Sequence record: MW679410.1
DNA from: Escherichia phage C6
Direction: 5' to 3' (one strand)
DNA: 64,000 bases
Shown: piece after piece, positions 15,090 to 24,668 of the stretch
Layout of the letters: each line of letters begins with the position of its first letter
How positions within the stretch are numbered: the first letter of the stretch is position 1
Made by a program: the position numbers and the translations under genes
Notes under the pieces: generated by a model
Told to the model about the DNA's origin: nothing
Databases searched by the model: none
The model's input: the letters and a program-made list of their open reading frames with translations, nothing else

Positions 15090-17213
15090 CTACATTTTGA
15101 ATTTATTTGGCAGAGCAGAGATATCCAAAGATGCAGCAAGGATTTCCATAGCTTCGTTGCTTTCAGAAACGGATTCATTAACCAAGAATTGACTGAATCC
15201 ATGCATCAGGCGAACTTCACCAGTTTCCATCAAATGGTCGCCATCGTAAACAGATTCGCTGAGCTCTGAAGGAGGTGTTACTGTAGCTTCCATAAGATAT
15301 TTGTGAGATACCCTATCATTCATAGCAAAAGCCGCTACTTTATCAACCTTCAACAATAATCCACGCGGAAGGATAATTTCTGCTTCTTCGGCATATTCTG
15401 TAAGGTCACCAGGAGCGATAACTTTAACTGCTTCAGCACCTCGAATAACCATACCAATTTCAGCAATTCTATCCGCAGGACCTTCAGGTGCAATTGGATT
15501 ACCAAACTCGTCTTCTTCCCATTCTACCTCTTCGTCATCGACTTCACCCACATCAGATGAACTACCACTAGCCAATTTAAACAACTCATCAGCGGAGGAT
15601 AAAGAACCTTCACCACCAACAAAAACGGCTTGGTTGTCGAGGGCCATATAATTTTTACCAAATTCACCAAAGATGTTAGGCTTTAATGAGGCTGACACAA
15701 AGTTCTTAAAGTAAAATGTTTTGTTATCGATATTATGACGCAGAATTTTGTATGGCAAATCCTGACCACGATACAAAATAGTACCCTTAGGAAGTTTAAT
15801 ACCCTTAGTAAATGCTGAGTCTAAATCCTTAATCAATTTAATAGCCGTTGTATTGTTTTCGGATTCAGGTTTACCTAAAAGGAACAAGTTCATAGGAGCA
15901 TATTCAGCTGCGCAATATTCAATAATAGCATTGCTTTCGTCTTTGGTTAGGTCCTTAGGTTTAATGAGCTCACCTGAATAAGCATATGCATCACTAATAG
16001 AATCGTTAATTAGTTTATAAACGGCTTCCATAGCGAAAGCAATTCGAGAGGCCTTTTCTGAAGGGGAGCCTTTAAAACGGGTACTCAGGTTATTAACAAT
16101 TTTCTTAATAATATCCAGACTATTGGTTGTATTGATTTGCGAAAGACCGCTTAAAAGTCTATCGACTTCTGTATTAAAAAATGCCATATTATTAGAGTAA
16201 ATTTCAAACCCTTGTTTATCTCTATTAGCATAATTTAGTTTAAATTTACTATCAGTCATTAAAGCGTGCGTGAGAGCAATGGTGTATCTAAAGTTGGCAA
16301 GGTCCTCGCTCTTAGATTTAAACTGAGAAGCCTGGCGCATTTTGGTAATAGCACCTTTTTTAAAGTTCTGACTAATCTGTTCAATACCTTCATTCTCAGG
16401 GCCTTCAGCCGTGTGAACCGGTACAGAAGCTTCAAACTCGTTATAAACCTGCAATTCTTTAGGGGACAAAGTTTCAGGCTCAGCAGTAGAATACTGCGCG
16501 GCTGCTGCCATACGACGCGAAATCTTAGTACGAGTAATGACAGCCTTATCAGTACGTTTTTCTTCAACTTGTGCAATAGATGCCGCTACGGCTTCGACCT
16601 TACTTACGGCCTGGCCGGTTTTCTTAGAAACATACACTTCGCCAACTTTAGACTCAACTTTAGTATAAAGATCGGCATTAATTTCAGGCATACCCTTGAT
16701 ATCTTCAATATTAGCCCCGCGACGTACTAAAAGAACGTAGGTATGTTTTCCGCTGAATTGGAACATGTCGTCAACAACTTTAAACTTACCACCGGTACGG
16801 GCCATAGCCAAACGAGCTAATACGCGCTGAACGGTAGGGCCTTTACCTTTCATTTTCTTAGTAGGGAAACGGAATAAAACCGCGTCCATTTTAAGTTTGT
16901 TTATTTGTTCATATATGGTATCGAAAATGGTGTTCAGTGTACCGAGTGGATCGGTACCCAAACCACCCTTGAGTTCTGCCGGAGCGCCTTTAGCAGATAA
17001 ACTCATTAAGATAACATGGACGTACTTATCGCCCGCCTTAACCATCTTAATAGCGTCGCCTTCAGACGCATAAGATACCATACGTGCTACTAAATTGTCA
17101 TTACCAGGAGCATGTACCGCAAAAATCTGCGGTACGCCTGAGCCAGGTTTAAGATTTGTTACTGGGTAATTTTTTTTATCACTTTTATCAAAAACTTCGT
17201 TTAAATTTTCCAT
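15090..17213 (-). CDS. Alt-like ADP-ribosyltransferase paralog 1 (divergent middle region)
   Basis: 707 aa; N-terminal ~230 aa near-identical to paralogs 2 and 3 and similar to T4 Alt; C-terminal YRGQ / FVSASL / EAEIILPRG motifs; poly-acidic insert. Confidence 0.85.
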   Translation of the reverse strand: MENLNEVFDKSDKKNYPVTNLKPGSGVPQIFAVHAPGNDNLVARMVSYASEGDAIKMVKAGDKYVHVILMSLSAKGAPAELKGGLGTDPLGTLNTIFDTIYEQINKLKMDAVLFRFPTKKMKGKGPTVQRVLARLAMARTGGKFKVVDDMFQFSGKHTYVLLVRRGANIEDIKGMPEINADLYTKVESKVGEVYVSKKTGQAVSKVEAVAASIAQVEEKRTDKAVITRTKISRRMAAAAQYSTAEPETLSPKELQVYNEFEASVPVHTAEGPENEGIEQISQNFKKGAITKMRQASQFKSKSEDLANFRYTIALTHALMTDSKFKLNYANRDKQGFEIYSNNMAFFNTEVDRLLSGLSQINTTNSLDIIKKIVNNLSTRFKGSPSEKASRIAFAMEAVYKLINDSISDAYAYSGELIKPKDLTKDESNAIIEYCAAEYAPMNLFLLGKPESENNTTAIKLIKDLDSAFTKGIKLPKGTILYRGQDLPYKILRHNIDNKTFYFKNFVSASLKPNIFGEFGKNYMALDNQAVFVGGEGSLSSADELFKLASGSSSDVGEVDDEEVEWEEDEFGNPIAPEGPADRIAEIGMVIRGAEAVKVIAPGDLTEYAEEAEIILPRGLLLKVDKVAAFAMNDRVSHKYLMEATVTPPSELSESVYDGDHLMETGEVRLMHGFSQFLVNESVSESNEAMEILAASLDISALPNKFKM

Positions 17214-17216
17214 TAT

Positions 17217-19262
17217 TTACCCTTGGGTGAATTTTTCTGGGATTTCGTCAAAATTAATACATGAAGCCAAAAGAGGCATTATATCCACCTTGGTCGATTT
17301 GACAAATGAATCAAAAGACACAGGGTTGTCGGTCTCTGTTTCTACGCCTTGGTAAACAACCAATTCGCCGGTTTCCATCAATGCATCACCATCATAGATA
17401 ACCGCATTTTCTGCTAGTTGGTCTGTGGTCTGGATATCAGCTTCCAATAATTTGGTGTTGTAGTTTCCTTTATATGAGGCATCTGTAATTTTAGTAATCT
17501 TAACAGTAGTTCCACGTGGAAGAATAACCTCTTGTTCTGTTGGAGAACCTGACAATTCACCGGGCACAATTACGTTAATAGAGTCTGCACCGGAAATTTT
17601 CCAACCGATGTTCATCATTGTATTTTCGGAACTCGTCAGCATACTTGGAAGAACAATTTCATTATCGCCTTGGAAAGATGTCCCAACGCGATAGTCCTGA
17701 TGAACTGCGGCCATTGCGACGTTTGATACCCAGCCGCCAAAGATAATCGGCTTAAGGGACGTTGATACATAGTTCCTGAAATAAAACAATTTTGAGTGTT
17801 TGATTTTATCAAAAGTGTTAACATTTAAATATTGACCACGCCAAAGTGTAATATCAGGTGGCAATTTATGGCCAATTTCAAATGCCGCATCCATATCATT
17901 AATTACTTCAATTACGCGATAACTATCAATAAATTCTGCATCCTCTTCATAATAATTACCCAACAAATAATTATTAACATCGGTATAATATTGGCCGCAA
18001 TAAGAAGAAATAGCCTCACGCTGCTCATACTCAAATCGATTATCGCTATAACTGGCTGTAAAATGCATAACACTTTCTGACGCTTCATTAGCAAAATCGG
18101 TAACAGCAGCACTTATACGTTGAGCATACTCTTGTTCCCAAAGCTCTGCCGCATATTCGGCCGCATCCATATTAGGAGGAGCCTCATTCATTTTTCTTTC
18201 GATAAATGCAGCTTTGCGAAGGTTAAGAACCTCTGCACATGATTCGGCAAAAATCTGCATCTGCTTCATACTGCCGACAGGAGCACGTTTAAGTTCACGA
18301 TGCATACGGTTAAAAATTGGGTCAGAGTCTTCGACTCGAATTTCTTCTTTCCAAACACCGTTTGCTCGCATAGCCATATCTGCCGCGCGCATACGCTCCA
18401 TAGTATTCGTTTCAGAAGGTTGAATAAAAATTTCTAGTTCTTCATAATCGTCGATAAGTTCCGCTGTTGCTGGGGCACTAAATTTTGATGCCTCTGCATC
18501 AATCTCATTCCAACCTTCCGGAACTTCATCTCGAGGAGAATACTGGGCTGCGGCTACAGCACGCCTAGAAATCTTGGTAGTAGTAATAACGGCCTTATCC
18601 GTACGTTTTTCTTCGACTGCCGCTATACTAGCAGATAGTGCTTCTATTTTGGTTACCGATTGGCCTGTTTTCTTGGATACATAAACCTCACCAACTTTAG
18701 ACTCAACCTTAGTGTAAAGGTCTGCATCAATTTCAGGCATACCTTTTATGTCCTCAATATTAGCTTGTTTACGAACCAGTAAAACGTATGTATGTTTGCC
18801 TGTAAATTGATACATATCATCGACAACTTTAAACTTGCCGCCAGTACGAGCCATCGCCAAACGTGCCAATACACGTTGAACAGTAGGACCCTTACCTTTC
18901 ATTTTCTTGGTAGGGAACCGGAAAAGAACTGCATCCATACGAAGAGCTTTAACTTGTTCGTATACAGTATCGAAAATGGTGTTCAGTGTACCAAGTGGGT
19001 CAGAACCTAACCCGCCTTTCAACTCGGCTGGGGTACCCTTAGCAGACAAACTCATCAAAATAACATGAACATATTTGTCGCCCGGCTTAACCATTTTAAT
19101 AGCGTCTCCTTGAGACGCATAAGATACCATACGAGCAACCAGATTATCATTACCTGGTGCTTGGATAGAGAAAATCTGTGGAATACCGGAACCCGGTTTA
19201 AGATTTGTTACTGGATAGTTTTTAGCGGAATCACTATCAAAAACCTCATTTAAATTTTCCAT
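17217..19262 (-). CDS. Alt-like ADP-ribosyltransferase paralog 2
   Basis: 681 aa; conserved N-terminal module; WRGQ / YVSTSL / EQEVILPRG motifs. Confidence 0.85.
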   Translation of the reverse strand: MENLNEVFDSDSAKNYPVTNLKPGSGIPQIFSIQAPGNDNLVARMVSYASQGDAIKMVKPGDKYVHVILMSLSAKGTPAELKGGLGSDPLGTLNTIFDTVYEQVKALRMDAVLFRFPTKKMKGKGPTVQRVLARLAMARTGGKFKVVDDMYQFTGKHTYVLLVRKQANIEDIKGMPEIDADLYTKVESKVGEVYVSKKTGQSVTKIEALSASIAAVEEKRTDKAVITTTKISRRAVAAAQYSPRDEVPEGWNEIDAEASKFSAPATAELIDDYEELEIFIQPSETNTMERMRAADMAMRANGVWKEEIRVEDSDPIFNRMHRELKRAPVGSMKQMQIFAESCAEVLNLRKAAFIERKMNEAPPNMDAAEYAAELWEQEYAQRISAAVTDFANEASESVMHFTASYSDNRFEYEQREAISSYCGQYYTDVNNYLLGNYYEEDAEFIDSYRVIEVINDMDAAFEIGHKLPPDITLWRGQYLNVNTFDKIKHSKLFYFRNYVSTSLKPIIFGGWVSNVAMAAVHQDYRVGTSFQGDNEIVLPSMLTSSENTMMNIGWKISGADSINVIVPGELSGSPTEQEVILPRGTTVKITKITDASYKGNYNTKLLEADIQTTDQLAENAVIYDGDALMETGELVVYQGVETETDNPVSFDSFVKSTKVDIMPLLASCINFDEIPEKFTQG

Positions 19263-19265
19263 TAT

Positions 19266-21350
19266 TTACCCTTGGATGAATTTTTCTGGGATGTCATAGA
19301 GGTCTATGCATGAAGCCAAAAGAGGCAGTACATCAAACCGTGTAGATTTAACAAATGAATCAAAAGATACAGGGCTTTCGGAAGTATCGAAGTCATCTTG
19401 ATATACGACCAACTCGCCGGTTTCCATTAGTACGTCACCATCATATACCACAGATTCTTGAAGCTCATCTGTTGTCATAACTTCAGCTTGGATGAGTTTT
19501 GTATTACTAGATGTTGTTCCATCATTATTAGAAGCATCTGTTATTTTATTAACTTTGACCATTAATCCACGCGGTAGAATAACTTCGGCTTCAGTTGCTA
19601 TTCCGAGATTTCCTGGATATACTACATTAACTTTATGAGCCCCATCAATAGCCCATCCTATTTGAACTTTAACGTAATCAGGATTTTCCTTATACGCCCT
19701 TATTTCATTAGGGTTAATAGTTATTCCTTCTTCATTTTTATCGACTGTCAATTCATTACGAACTTCCGGTTCTAAAAGACCGATACCAGCGTGTGTAACA
19801 CCAAATCGTCCAAAAATGATAGGGGTTAAAGAAGTAGATACAAAATTTCTGAAATAGAACACTTTATTTTTAACTAGTGCTTCGTATATAGGAGCAGTCA
19901 TACTCTGTGCACGATAAACTGTAATGCCTTCTGGTATACGGTCACCATTTTCAAAAGCAGAATCCAAATTATTAACTGCAGATTCGATATCTTTTTCGCT
20001 CATAACCTCATAGTTCTGAGGATTATAACGTCCTAAAAGAAGATTATTTATGTCTGTATATCCTGAACCACAATATTCTCTGATGCCGCGCTTTTGTGAT
20101 GGGGTATATTTAGAGCCCTCACGAGCAATAGTAATATCGACCATAATACCACCACCCACACCAGCAAAACTATATACACGTTTTTTAATGAACTTGGTCT
20201 TGGCGGCTTTCCACTTCGCATCGGTCAATTCATTCCAGAGGTCGTCAGGTTGGCCTTTACGAGTTTTGTTATGCCGGGCCAGCCATTCACCTTTGTATTC
20301 TTCGAAAACGGTATTAATAGCAGAGGCATATTTTTCTAGAGCTTTAACAGATGTCAAAGGTTCGTTTTTGATGGCCGTAAGAATTTTATCTTTAATTTTC
20401 TCTTGGATTTCACCTATACCGTGAAGAGGAAACATTTTATAATCGTAATGCAATTCTTCAGCAGTGCCTTCAGCCACTATATTAGCAACCTTATTTTTAG
20501 CCGCAGGAGAATTGTTATTAGTAACCATTTCCTGAGCCTCAGGGATTAATGGAACTGTTGCTGGTTTATTAAAATCCGCTGCAGTAGCTTCATATTTCTT
20601 AAACAATTCACTTTCATTACGATAAGATTCCAATGATTGGCTTGCTGCAATAGCACGTCGCGAAATCTTAGTCTTGGTTATAACCATTTTATCAGTGCGA
20701 CGTTCTTCAACCTTAGCAATACTGCCGGCAATAGCAGTTTCTTTAGTAACCTGCACACCTTCTTTTTTGGAAATATAAACTTCACCGACATCAGAATCTA
20801 CCTTAGTGTATAATTCGGAATTAATTCCTGGCATACCTTTGATATCTTCGATATCAGCTTGTTTACGAACTACTAAGATGTAAGTATGTTTACCGGTAAA
20901 TTGGTACATAGCCGGAACTACTTTAAAACGTCCACCAGTTTTCTGTGCTACCAAACGTTGGATAATCCGTTGGACAATAGGTCCTTGTCCTTTCATTTTC
21001 TTGGTAGGAAAACGGAACATCACGGCATCCATACGAAGCTTTTTAACTTGGTCATAAACCACATCAAAAATAGTATTAATCGCATCTACGGGAGTAGGGC
21101 CAAGGCCACCCTTAAGTTCGGCCGGAGTACCTTTAGCTGAAAGGCTCATAAGGATAACGTGGGCATATTTATCACCCATTTTAACTTGTTTAATAGCATC
21201 ACCTTCAGAAGCGTAGGATACCATACGCGCGACCAATTGGGATTCAACGTCTCCAATTTTCCAAATCTGGGGTACTTTAAGTTTAGGGTTCAAGTTTACT
21301 GTAGGCAGAGTGCCTTCGGACTCAAACACTTCATTTAATTGTTCGGTCAT
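19266..21350 (-). CDS. alt: Alt ADP-ribosyltransferase (closest to T4 Alt)
   Basis: 694 aa; collinear similarity to T4 Alt over full length, including KYTPSQKRGIREYCGSGYTDINN, FVSTSL and EAEVILPRGLMVKVNKITDAS. Confidence 0.9.
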   Translation of the reverse strand: MTEQLNEVFESEGTLPTVNLNPKLKVPQIWKIGDVESQLVARMVSYASEGDAIKQVKMGDKYAHVILMSLSAKGTPAELKGGLGPTPVDAINTIFDVVYDQVKKLRMDAVMFRFPTKKMKGQGPIVQRIIQRLVAQKTGGRFKVVPAMYQFTGKHTYILVVRKQADIEDIKGMPGINSELYTKVDSDVGEVYISKKEGVQVTKETAIAGSIAKVEERRTDKMVITKTKISRRAIAASQSLESYRNESELFKKYEATAADFNKPATVPLIPEAQEMVTNNNSPAAKNKVANIVAEGTAEELHYDYKMFPLHGIGEIQEKIKDKILTAIKNEPLTSVKALEKYASAINTVFEEYKGEWLARHNKTRKGQPDDLWNELTDAKWKAAKTKFIKKRVYSFAGVGGGIMVDITIAREGSKYTPSQKRGIREYCGSGYTDINNLLLGRYNPQNYEVMSEKDIESAVNNLDSAFENGDRIPEGITVYRAQSMTAPIYEALVKNKVFYFRNFVSTSLTPIIFGRFGVTHAGIGLLEPEVRNELTVDKNEEGITINPNEIRAYKENPDYVKVQIGWAIDGAHKVNVVYPGNLGIATEAEVILPRGLMVKVNKITDASNNDGTTSSNTKLIQAEVMTTDELQESVVYDGDVLMETGELVVYQDDFDTSESPVSFDSFVKSTRFDVLPLLASCIDLYDIPEKFIQG

Positions 21351-23108: not shown

Positions 23109-23401
23109 TTTACCGTCCTTACAGTTTGGGTACTTCTATTATAAGCCACTTCATCTAAAAGCTCATTTAAAGTTTTGTGATACGATATAATACGCTTATC
23201 TTTAATATCATATTCAGTAACATACATAAATCCACGCCGAACACATTGGATAAAGATATCTTCATCTTTGGCTTGGAAATATACAGGGTTCAATCGAAGG
23301 AATTGTCTAACGTTTCCATAATCATGGGATTTAGGGGTCCCATCAGTAATAGTATGAACTACAAACATATTAACCTCGAGCAATCCATTCAACTGCGGCA
23401 T
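23105..23401 (-). CDS. hypothetical protein (30.1 position)
   Basis: 98-aa track ORF, translationally coupled to gene 30. Confidence 0.5.
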   Translation of the reverse strand: MPQLNGLLEVNMFVVHTITDGTPKSHDYGNVRQFLRLNPVYFQAKDEDIFIQCVRRGFMYVTEYDIKDKRIISYHKTLNELLDEVAYNRSTQTVRTVK

Positions 23402-24008
23402 TATTACGAAGGGATTCGATTGCTGCGATATCGTCCCATGAATTAACCTTTACGGCCAAATTAGGTTTAAAGTCGCGTTCACCACGAGCTAACCAATAAA
23501 CTTGGATATCCATGAGAACATTAGATGCTGCATCGCAATGATGAGCCAAATCATCAACATAAAACTTAATACGTTTACCGTACGTATTTTTAGCTCTTAT
23601 GAAGAGGTCTTCTTTTGATTCTGAATGACCGCACATCAGAATCTCCTTGAATGCGCCAGGGAACAAAGCATTCAAATTGAATTGTCTATTCAGCAGGGCA
23701 TCAATTGAGTCGCCTAGCGCAGTCACGGCTACAAAATCGAAGTCTTTTTTGAGCTTGTTGATATGTTTTAGTGCGTCCATGTAAGGAGACAGATAACGAA
23801 TAAAATCTGACTGATTATATTTCTCGATTAAACGAGCGCCCAATTCATTATCACAATTAAACAGCTCGCCTGGAGATAAGAACCGTTCGTCCTGAATCAT
23901 ATTCAAAATATGTTCTAAAGGCAAATTATATTTCTGTGCGAAATAAGGCAAGCCGGACTGCCAACTTAAACATACTCCATCGATATCTGTTAAGATAACT
24001 GGTTTCAT
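23370..24008 (-). CDS. HAD-superfamily hydrolase-like protein (30.2 position)
   Basis: 212 aa; N-terminal VILTDIDGV resembles HAD motif I (DxDG). Confidence 0.6.
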   Translation of the reverse strand: MKPVILTDIDGVCLSWQSGLPYFAQKYNLPLEHILNMIQDERFLSPGELFNCDNELGARLIEKYNQSDFIRYLSPYMDALKHINKLKKDFDFVAVTALGDSIDALLNRQFNLNALFPGAFKEILMCGHSESKEDLFIRAKNTYGKRIKFYVDDLAHHCDAASNVLMDIQVYWLARGERDFKPNLAVKVNSWDDIAAIESLRNNAAVEWIARG

Positions 24009-24463
24009 AATAAATCTCTCAATTTGTTTAGGATGTCGATAAACTCTTTTTCAGTTAGTATTGTATCACATTCTGTAAGGTGGCTTGCCATCGAATGCTT
24101 TAAAACTTTACCTTTTGTGGATTGTAACGCATCGCGGAATCCTTTGTTCTGGAGCGCTGCTTCAAAATACGCACTTTCGTAAAGCTCTTTCCACGCTTCG
24201 GAATATCTTGAAAACGGAGTTCCAAGCCAGAACAACGTGCCACGGTCCTGAGCTCTAGCATAAGCTCGACCAGCTTTTTGCGCGTCTAACCCGGACATCC
24301 CAAATATACGTCTTTGCTGTTCAACATTTTTCACCTTACATCCTTGGAGGAATCCTTCGAGTCCACCAAATTGGATACCATCCATAACGAAAGGCCATTT
24401 AGCAAAGTTACTTAATGCACATGATGGCCATGGGAAGTTGCTTCTAATTTCTAATTCAGACAT
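24005..24463 (-). CDS. NADAR/YbiA-like (DUF1768-type) protein
   Basis: Track ORF 24005..24472; segment LSNFAKWPFVMDGIQF... resembles the E. coli YbiA N-terminal FSNFAAWP...DG motif; probable ATG at 24463 overlapping upstream stop. Confidence 0.5.
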   Translation of the reverse strand: MSELEIRSNFPWPSCALSNFAKWPFVMDGIQFGGLEGFLQGCKVKNVEQQRRIFGMSGLDAQKAGRAYARAQDRGTLFWLGTPFSRYSEAWKELYESAYFEAALQNKGFRDALQSTKGKVLKHSMASHLTECDTILTEKEFIDILNKLRDLL

Positions 24464-24668
24464 CTTTGACACTTATAATTTCAACATCAGCCCAATGACC
24501 ATAACCAGGTAGACGGTCTTTAATAGATAATCCACCGTCAAATTTCAGCATTTTAATTGTTTTAGTATATGGTTCAATATTTCGGGCCCATGGACTCACG
24601 TCTGTCACACGATAAGTAACTTCGACCATTTCTGTGCCCAAAATTTTCTGAATCAGTTTCTTAAACAT
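24456..24668 (-). CDS. hypothetical protein
   Basis: 70-aa track ORF in tightly packed operon. Confidence 0.45.
   Translation of the reverse strand: MFKKLIQKILGTEMVEVTYRVTDVSPWARNIEPYTKTIKMLKFDGGLSIKDRLPGYGHWADVEIISVKDV

Follow-up and report, generated by a model that had tools for sequence, protein, structure and literature searches.

An adfN (gene 30.3) ortholog encoding a phage-type NADAR protein in Escherichia phage C6

Introduction

A 64,000-nucleotide (nt) stretch of the genome of Escherichia phage C6 (MW679410.1; hereafter, the window) carries on its minus strand a short open reading frame (ORF) that lies next to a gene for a HAD-like hydrolase and not far from an array of ADP-ribosyltransferase (ART) genes. 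What does its product do, and do the neighboring genes take part? An earlier note, made from the DNA sequence alone, had recognized in the ORF a signature resembling that of E. coli YbiA and had proposed two roles for the protein, an eraser of ADP-ribosylation alongside the phage's own ARTs or a counter-defense factor against DarTG. NADAR proteins reverse guanine ADP-ribosylation, and a NADAR protein is the antitoxin of DarT1 (Schuller et al. 2023, PMC11543638).

Results

Identity of the ORF

Judged by its sequence, the ORF is gene 30.3, the ortholog of T4 adfN ("anti-DarT factor NADAR"). Its product is 86% identical to T4 gp30.3 (AdfN) in an end-to-end alignment over all 152 residues, and the local gene order, alt – alt.1 – 30 (DNA ligase) – 30.1 – 30.2 – 30.3 – 30.4 ... 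31, is that of T4 and JS98. We consider it very likely that the gene encodes a minimal, core-only NADAR-fold N-glycosidase that neutralizes DarTG1. What was computed here covers the identity and fold of the protein, its catalytic residues, its intact length, and the synteny; the activity and the anti-DarTG1 phenotype are those of the published T4 protein, and by analogy we infer that the window allele would act like T4 AdfN.

By DNA the window is closest to EcWhh-1, KIT01, and JS98 (about 94% identical) and is, on this sequence comparison, that of a JS98-like T-even phage of the genus Dhakavirus. Mechanical listing of ORFs gave a minus-strand frame at 24005..24472, with 155 aa counted from a GTG codon at 24472, three codons upstream of an ATG at 24463. 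The gene probably starts at this ATG (152 aa) rather than at the GTG, since the ATG agrees with the T4 and JS98 annotations and with a 100%-identical database protein (P0001, from Escherichia phage C6). On its upstream side, the ATG and the stop codon of gene 30.4 overlap at ATGTCTGA, and the stop codon of 30.3 in turn overlaps the start of 30.2 (ATGA). Coordinates are collected in Table 1.

Table 1. Positions of gene 30.3, its predicted functional elements, and neighboring genes in the window
Feature	Position	Strand	Basis or remark
Gene 30.3 / adfN ortholog, 152-aa phage-type NADAR (predicted ADP-ribosyl-guanine DNA glycohydrolase)	24005..24463	minus	End includes the stop codon
N-terminal NADAR signature LSNFAKWPFVMDGIQF, residues 17-32	24368..24415	minus	Aligns to YbiA FSNFAAWPIKVDGKTW
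Catalytic segment E36-G-F-L-Q-G-C-K43	24335..24358	minus	Glu36 codon 24356-24358; Lys43 codon 24335-24337
His123 in last strand (LKHS)	24095..24097	minus	Model strand, residues 120-124
C-terminal helix, about residues 138-152, intact	24008..24052	minus	AlphaFold2 (AF2) helix 138-151; full-length T4 alignment
Gene 30.4, 70 aa, upstream of 30.3	24456..24668	minus	phrog_2042, E=4e-34; JS98 annotation
Gene 30.2, 212-aa HAD-superfamily hydrolase	23370..24008	minus	Begins MKPVILTDIDGV
Alt-type ADP-ribosyltransferase gene, first of three in tandem	15090-17213	minus	PF03496 ADPrib_exo_Tox, E=2.5e-17
Alt-type ADP-ribosyltransferase gene, second	17217-19262	minus	PF03496 ADPrib_exo_Tox, E=6.6e-21
Alt-type ADP-ribosyltransferase gene, third	19266-21350	minus	PF03496 ADPrib_exo_Tox, E=4.9e-36

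Membership in the NADAR superfamily

The 30.3 protein matched Pfam PF08010 (Phage_30_3, "Bacteriophage protein GP30.3") with E=5e-65 and a score of 218 bits, where the cut-off is 36, over all 138 of the 138 profile positions. The match covers residues 12-150, so that the whole 152-aa chain is core and holds no extra domain. In PHROGs, the protein falls into phrog_652, annotated as of unknown function. Searching 1.84 billion representative proteins with a profile returned 1,087 relatives at E<=1e-3, from which a family sample of 150 was drawn (145 of the best matches, the query, and four close homologs). All 150 representatives belong to PF08010. PF08719, the NADAR (DUF1768) family of YbiA, was matched by 38 of them at E<=0.01, the best at 1.2e-6 and all below the gathering score.

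When the profile of the 150 members was run against 177,635 distinct PDB sequences, exactly one match was obtained, E. coli YbiA (E=3.6e-4). In the alignment, the SNF and EGFLQ..K motifs of the query stand opposite SNFAAWP and SEHYFQAQK of YbiA. The predicted structure agrees with this result. The model has a YbiA-like fold, in which small beta-sheets flank a helical core as in the NADAR superfamily, and its best structural match in the PDB is again E. coli YbiA (2b3w). The earlier expectation of a NADAR/DUF1768 profile hit thus held for PF08010 and for the family profile, which reaches YbiA, but not for the query alone, which misses PF08719; the expectation for structure prediction was borne out. 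We conclude that the 30.3 protein belongs to the phage-NADAR (gp30.3 / AdfN, PF08010) family within the NADAR superfamily and stands outside PF08719 itself; PF08010 is a sister Pfam family of PF08719, the "phage NADAR" family.

Conserved catalytic residues

The YbiA resemblance that the earlier note had pointed out is real, since FSNFAAWPIKVDGKTW is present in YbiA as read from E. coli K-12 (NC_000913.3). The corresponding LSNFAKWPFVMDGIQF of the 30.3 protein is identical to it at 9 of 16 positions. Within this stretch, L17, S18, and N19 are kept in at least 145 of the 150 representatives.

All three catalytic residues (Glu36, Lys43, and His123) are present in the window protein, unchanged from T4 gp30.3. 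E36 is found in every one of the 150 representatives and K43 in 141, with Arg in six more; the E36-K43 segment aligns to SEHYFQAQK of YbiA. A Glu followed seven residues later by a Lys is established for NADAR proteins by mutagenesis and an ADP-ribose co-crystal (PMC11543638, PMC11125620), and the same spacing has been mutagenized in the P. nicotianae NADAR (E43/K50), the E. coli C7 NADAR (E88/K95), and T4 AdfN (E36/K43) (PMC11543638, PMC11825919). H123 is conserved in 148 of the 150. The residue at this place in the last strand tells the families apart: it is His in phage NADAR, Glu in the YbiA family, and Asp in the DarG1 family (PMC11125620, PMC11543638). The C-terminal helix is also intact. 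In the RB69 allele, a frameshift removes the last 15 residues and hence this helix, and that allele is ineffective against DarTG1 (PMC11825919).

The last-strand residue bears on a different function for the protein, that of a YbiA-type metabolic N-glycosidase acting on riboflavin-pathway intermediates and not on ADP-ribosylated DNA. YbiA is the best structural match and the only match of the sequence profile in the PDB, and its RefSeq label is "N-glycosidase YbiA". What defines the YbiA family, however, is a Glu in the last strand, a position held by His in the query and in 148 of 150 relatives, and the T4 ortholog has both DNA de-ADP-ribosylation activity and a DarTG1 phenotype. Such a metabolic role is the least probable of the readings we weighed, and we regard it as extremely unlikely. 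The 30.3 protein is accordingly placed outside the strict YbiA family, because it carries His123 where Glu is required. YbiA (2b3w; PF08719) differs further in that its gene lies in the LexA-controlled dinG/ybiB operon, and YbiA gives no protection against DarT1 in vivo (PMC11125620).

Activity of the T4 protein against DarTG1

The option of anti-DarTG counter-defense has been demonstrated experimentally for the 86%-identical T4 ortholog. In vitro, T4 gp30.3 hydrolyzed guanosine-ADP-ribose and left thymidine-ADP-ribose intact, and it failed to rescue uninfected cells from DarT1 (Toxins 2024, PMC11125620). DarTG1 resistance of T-even phages was mapped to 30.3, which was renamed adfN (Johannesman et al., Nat Commun 2025, PMC11825919). 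In that study, AdfN-T4 was both necessary and sufficient for resistance to DarTG1 during T-even infection and was enough to rescue RB69; it stripped ADP-ribose off DarT1-modified DNA in vitro and did not bind DarT1, and the protein was weakened, with loss of function, by E36A and K43A (PMC11825919). A T4 transposon screen from 2025 (bioRxiv 10.1101/2025.11.20.689424) found that insertions in 30.3 are lost under DarTG1 (log2 fold change -7.25, adjusted p reported as 0); according to the T4 transposon data, the gene is non-essential in the absence of DarTG1. In the same screen 30.4 was mildly depleted (log2 fold change -1.79, adjusted p 0.014), which we read as probably a polar effect on the overlapping start of 30.3; gp30.4 itself could also contribute under DarTG1.

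From these published results, the following sequence of events would apply to the window allele. On infection of a DarTG1 host, DarT1 would ADP-ribosylate guanine in the phage DNA, and replication would be blocked. AdfN would bind the ADP-ribose moiety, with Lys43 touching the phosphates and Glu36 and His123 placed around the distal ribose, and would hydrolyze the ribose-guanine bond, which would release ADP-ribose and leave the DNA unmodified again. The protein would in this way be an "orphan antitoxin," one that repairs the damage and does not bind the toxin.

Several points weigh against assigning this function to the window protein. The query alone had no match to Pfam PF08719 at E<=0.1, and a single-sequence phmmer search with it against the PDB found nothing significant, the top hit being a spurious one to N-WASP at E=1.2; for this reason, the NADAR link rests on fold, profile, and literature. 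Residues 1-20 of the model, which include the SNF motif, were predicted at low confidence (predicted local distance difference test [pLDDT] score of 53-62). The window protein carries 14% substitutions relative to T4 gp30.3. Finally, AdfN-T4 is fully active only in T-even infection, and its mechanism is to that extent incomplete (PMC11825919).

Genes next to 30.3

The earlier note was right in calling the neighbor at 23370..24008 HAD-like. Motifs I-IV of the HAD superfamily are present in gp30.2 (D8/D10, T96, K132, and D152/D153) and are invariant in 33 homologs, T96 nearly so. The AF2 model of gp30.2 has a HAD fold at pLDDT 94, with Foldseek matches to HAD hydrolases at E~6e-8 and probability 1.0. 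We conclude that gp30.2 is a genuine HAD-fold protein. Placement in the NT5C family fell short of threshold: against PF06941 it scored 13.4 bits, below the cut-off of 24.8, and the best PDB match of its profile was 2jao, at E=0.044 only. Its many HAD fold matches take in 2jao, 4mum, and 3bwv, and 5'(3')-deoxyribonucleotidases are among the hydrolases matched. The protein shares 74% identity with the first 194 aa of T4 gp30.2. T4 gp30.2 has 278 aa (L001:630-1466), and its C-terminal ~80 residues have no counterpart in the window; homologs span 196 to 347 aa, with a variable C-terminal tail after the HAD core.

Since 30.3 and 30.2 adjoin, gp30.2 could be imagined as the T-even partner of AdfN in a two-enzyme module, for example processing the released ADP-ribose or ADP-ribosylated nucleotides. 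The ATGA overlap couples the two genes in translation, their adjacency is kept in a distant Acinetobacter phage, AdfN-T4 needs some T-even factor, and one family representative (P0068) fuses a gp30.3-type domain to an NT5C-type HAD domain. Compared pairwise, however, that domain and gp30.2 are not significantly similar (E=0.048), 30.3 stands without 30.2 beside it in several T4-like phages, and in the T4 screen 30.2 had a log2 fold change of -0.12 (p 0.61) against -7.25 for 30.3. The partnership is already largely refuted for T4 with DarTG1, and we rejected gp30.2 as the missing partner on the transposon result and on the phages in which 30.2 is not adjacent; for the window as well, we consider a module of this kind very improbable.

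The ARTs that the note had placed close by are indeed encoded on the same strand, 2.6 kb away, but four genes (alt.1, DNA ligase, 30.1, and 30.2) lie between 30.3 and the array. Among the records examined, the window has three Alt-type genes, JS98 two (alta and altb), and the T4 annotation table one. The three paralogs have 707, 681, and 694 aa, and the ART match of the first is partial (profile positions 14-134).

It could be supposed that 30.3 erases the marks of these ARTs (the three Alt paralogs, or ModA/ModB) from proteins or RNA and so limits self-inflicted ADP-ribosylation, a possibility to which the proximity of the array and the persistence of alt-ligase-30.2-30.3 synteny in the Acinetobacter phage lend some color. 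The known chemistry speaks against it: characterized NADARs, T4 gp30.3 included, have base-linked (guanine) ADP-ribose as their substrate, the annotation of Alt is that of an RNA polymerase ADP-ribosylase and hence of a protein modifier, and the NADAR literature cited here reports no assay of a NADAR on Arg-linked ADP-ribose. So do the genetics, as T4 alt insertions were neutral under DarTG1 (log2 fold change -0.01) and 30.3 is dispensable when DarTG1 is absent, and so does the position of 30.3 away from alt in Aeromonas phage 31, Klebsiella phage Merci, and Vibrio phage D485. We rate an eraser of the phage's own ARTs as just as improbable as the gp30.2 module. A functional link between 30.3 and the Alt array was rejected on the T4 alt result and the variable synteny.

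The neighborhood of 30.3 was therefore read as inherited T4 synteny, 30.2 and alt being neutral under DarTG1 and the loci varying across phages; a functional module is not what these adjacencies look like. The link that the note had implied between 30.3 and both the phage's ARTs and the HAD neighbor has no support. The T4 transposon data argue that the T-even cofactor of AdfN is neither gp30.2 nor Alt, and DarTG1 neutralization by AdfN itself remains our preferred explanation of the gene.

Gene 30.3 in other phages and in fusion proteins

In Aeromonas phage 31 (L004:6001-6450) and Klebsiella phage Merci (L008:4001-4450), the 30.3 homolog sits inside a tRNA gene cluster and is flanked by tRNA genes, with neither ligase nor 30.2 nor alt beside it; in Vibrio phage D485 it lies beside sbcCD-like genes. 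At none of these three loci was a 30.2 gene found near 30.3, and alt was located elsewhere. The Acinetobacter phage mentioned above retains the order 30.3-30.2-ligase-alt.

In some family representatives (P0158, P0068, P0044, P0155, and P0125), gp30.3-type domains are fused to other domains. The partners are a Tpt1/KptA RNA 2'-phosphotransferase (E=3e-41), the NT5C-type HAD nucleotidase of P0068, a GDSL hydrolase, an HD domain, and a possible dual-specificity phosphatase. ASCH (three members) and DUF6939 (seven members) also recur in the gp30.3 family. Judged from sequence, the fusions hint at nucleotide or RNA-end processing contexts for the clade.

These observations bear on whether AdfN may, besides counteracting DarT1, also clear guanine-ADP-ribose left on RNA or tRNA by other host ART toxins, which would be an added role and not an exclusive alternative to the anti-DarTG1 function. 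Representatives of all NADAR families remove guanine-ADP-ribose from RNA in vitro (PMC12945103), 30.3 lies within tRNA clusters in two phages, and one family member is fused to Tpt1/KptA. The placement in tRNA clusters may on the other hand be accidental, and the sole phenotype so far is that against DarTG1. We regard this broader repair as unlikely, although clearly less so than the alternatives above. The tRNA-cluster placement, the fusions to Tpt1/KptA, HD, GDSL, and NT5C domains, and the dependence of AdfN-T4 on T-even infection together underlie a related suggestion, that the gp30.3 clade, including the window allele, may have another natural substrate in addition to the phage DNA modified by DarT1, e.g., guanine-ADP-ribosylated RNA or tRNA made by other host toxins; to this we give slightly less credence still.

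Sequence features within 30.3

The 30.3 gene of UGJNEcP4 (L009:1206-1676) showed mosaic identity to the window (24005-24475). The first ~175 nt and the last ~85 nt are identical or nearly so, and the middle ~130 nt (alignment columns about 175-300) are far more diverged, a pattern that suggests recombination inside the gene. Short database clusters, such as a 91-aa protein of UGJNEcP4, were considered as natural truncated alleles of 30.3. This was not upheld, and we make no claim of a pseudogene: the UGJNEcP4 DNA codes for an intact 152-aa protein, and the 91-aa GenBank entry is therefore a start-site miscall.

An alternative minus-strand frame inside 30.3 (24100-24261) is open for 53 codons and corresponds to the C-terminal part of the overlapping T4 gene 30.3' (75 aa). 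The frame of the N-terminal part is closed in the window, so that the overlapping product, should it be real in T4, is not conserved over its full length. We rejected the 53 open codons as a sign of a second product because strong conservation of the main frame would yield the same.

T4, JS98, and the window agree throughout a 14-nt sequence within 30.3, GATACAATACTAAC (24044-24057, minus strand), third codon positions included. In T4, the -10 region of a middle promoter annotated as PM30.2 (X53848 553-578) lies at this sequence; farther upstream in PM30.2, at the position expected for the MotA box, conservation in the window is lower. The shared sequence suggests that an internal promoter for 30.2 may be maintained within 30.3.

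Discussion

The window protein agrees with T4 gp30.3 (AdfN) in length, in E36/K43/H123, in the intact C-terminal helix, and in its place between 30.4 and 30.2. The two loci differ in that the window belongs to a Dhakavirus genome with three Alt paralogs and in that its gp30.2 is without the ~80-aa C-terminal extension of T4.

Among characterized NADARs, the DarG1 antitoxins (BC4488 family; G. lovleyi 8bat, E. coli C7) have an Asp in the last strand and N-terminal extensions that form a DNA channel, and they are encoded beside DarT1 (PMC11543638). The window protein, in contrast, has His, is core-only, and is an orphan: it is flanked by 30.4 and 30.2, and no DarT was found among the genes flanking 30.3. 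The His in place of Asp, the lack of an N-terminal extension, and the absence of an adjacent DarT led us to conclude that it is not a DarG1 antitoxin; T4 gp30.3, too, cannot replace DarG1 in uninfected cells. By analogy, the phage protein would work like DarG1, but as an orphan.

Phages have other means of escaping DarTG. AdfA and AdfB do so as well, but by binding DarT. AdfM/Tk.4 is a macrodomain protein that acts on thymine-ADP-ribose against DarTG2, by enzymatic reversal as in AdfN. AdfN-Bas32 and AdfN-Bas60, which belong to other NADAR branches, also reverse the modification enzymatically and work without T-even infection.

The earlier note had treated the function of this ORF as open. For adfN, the fold and catalytic residues as well as the activity in vitro and the part played against DarTG1 were in fact published between 2023 and 2025, with the function of the T4 gene reported in 2024-2025, and the window adds another adfN ortholog. 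The T-even requirement and any further substrates are matters of the whole family and not of the window locus. The practical value of the finding lies in annotation: most of the 1,510 GenBank phage records with 30.3 still label it "hypothetical protein," and these genes could be renamed adfN or phage NADAR. A real counter-defense enzyme was recognizable here from a 16-residue motif.

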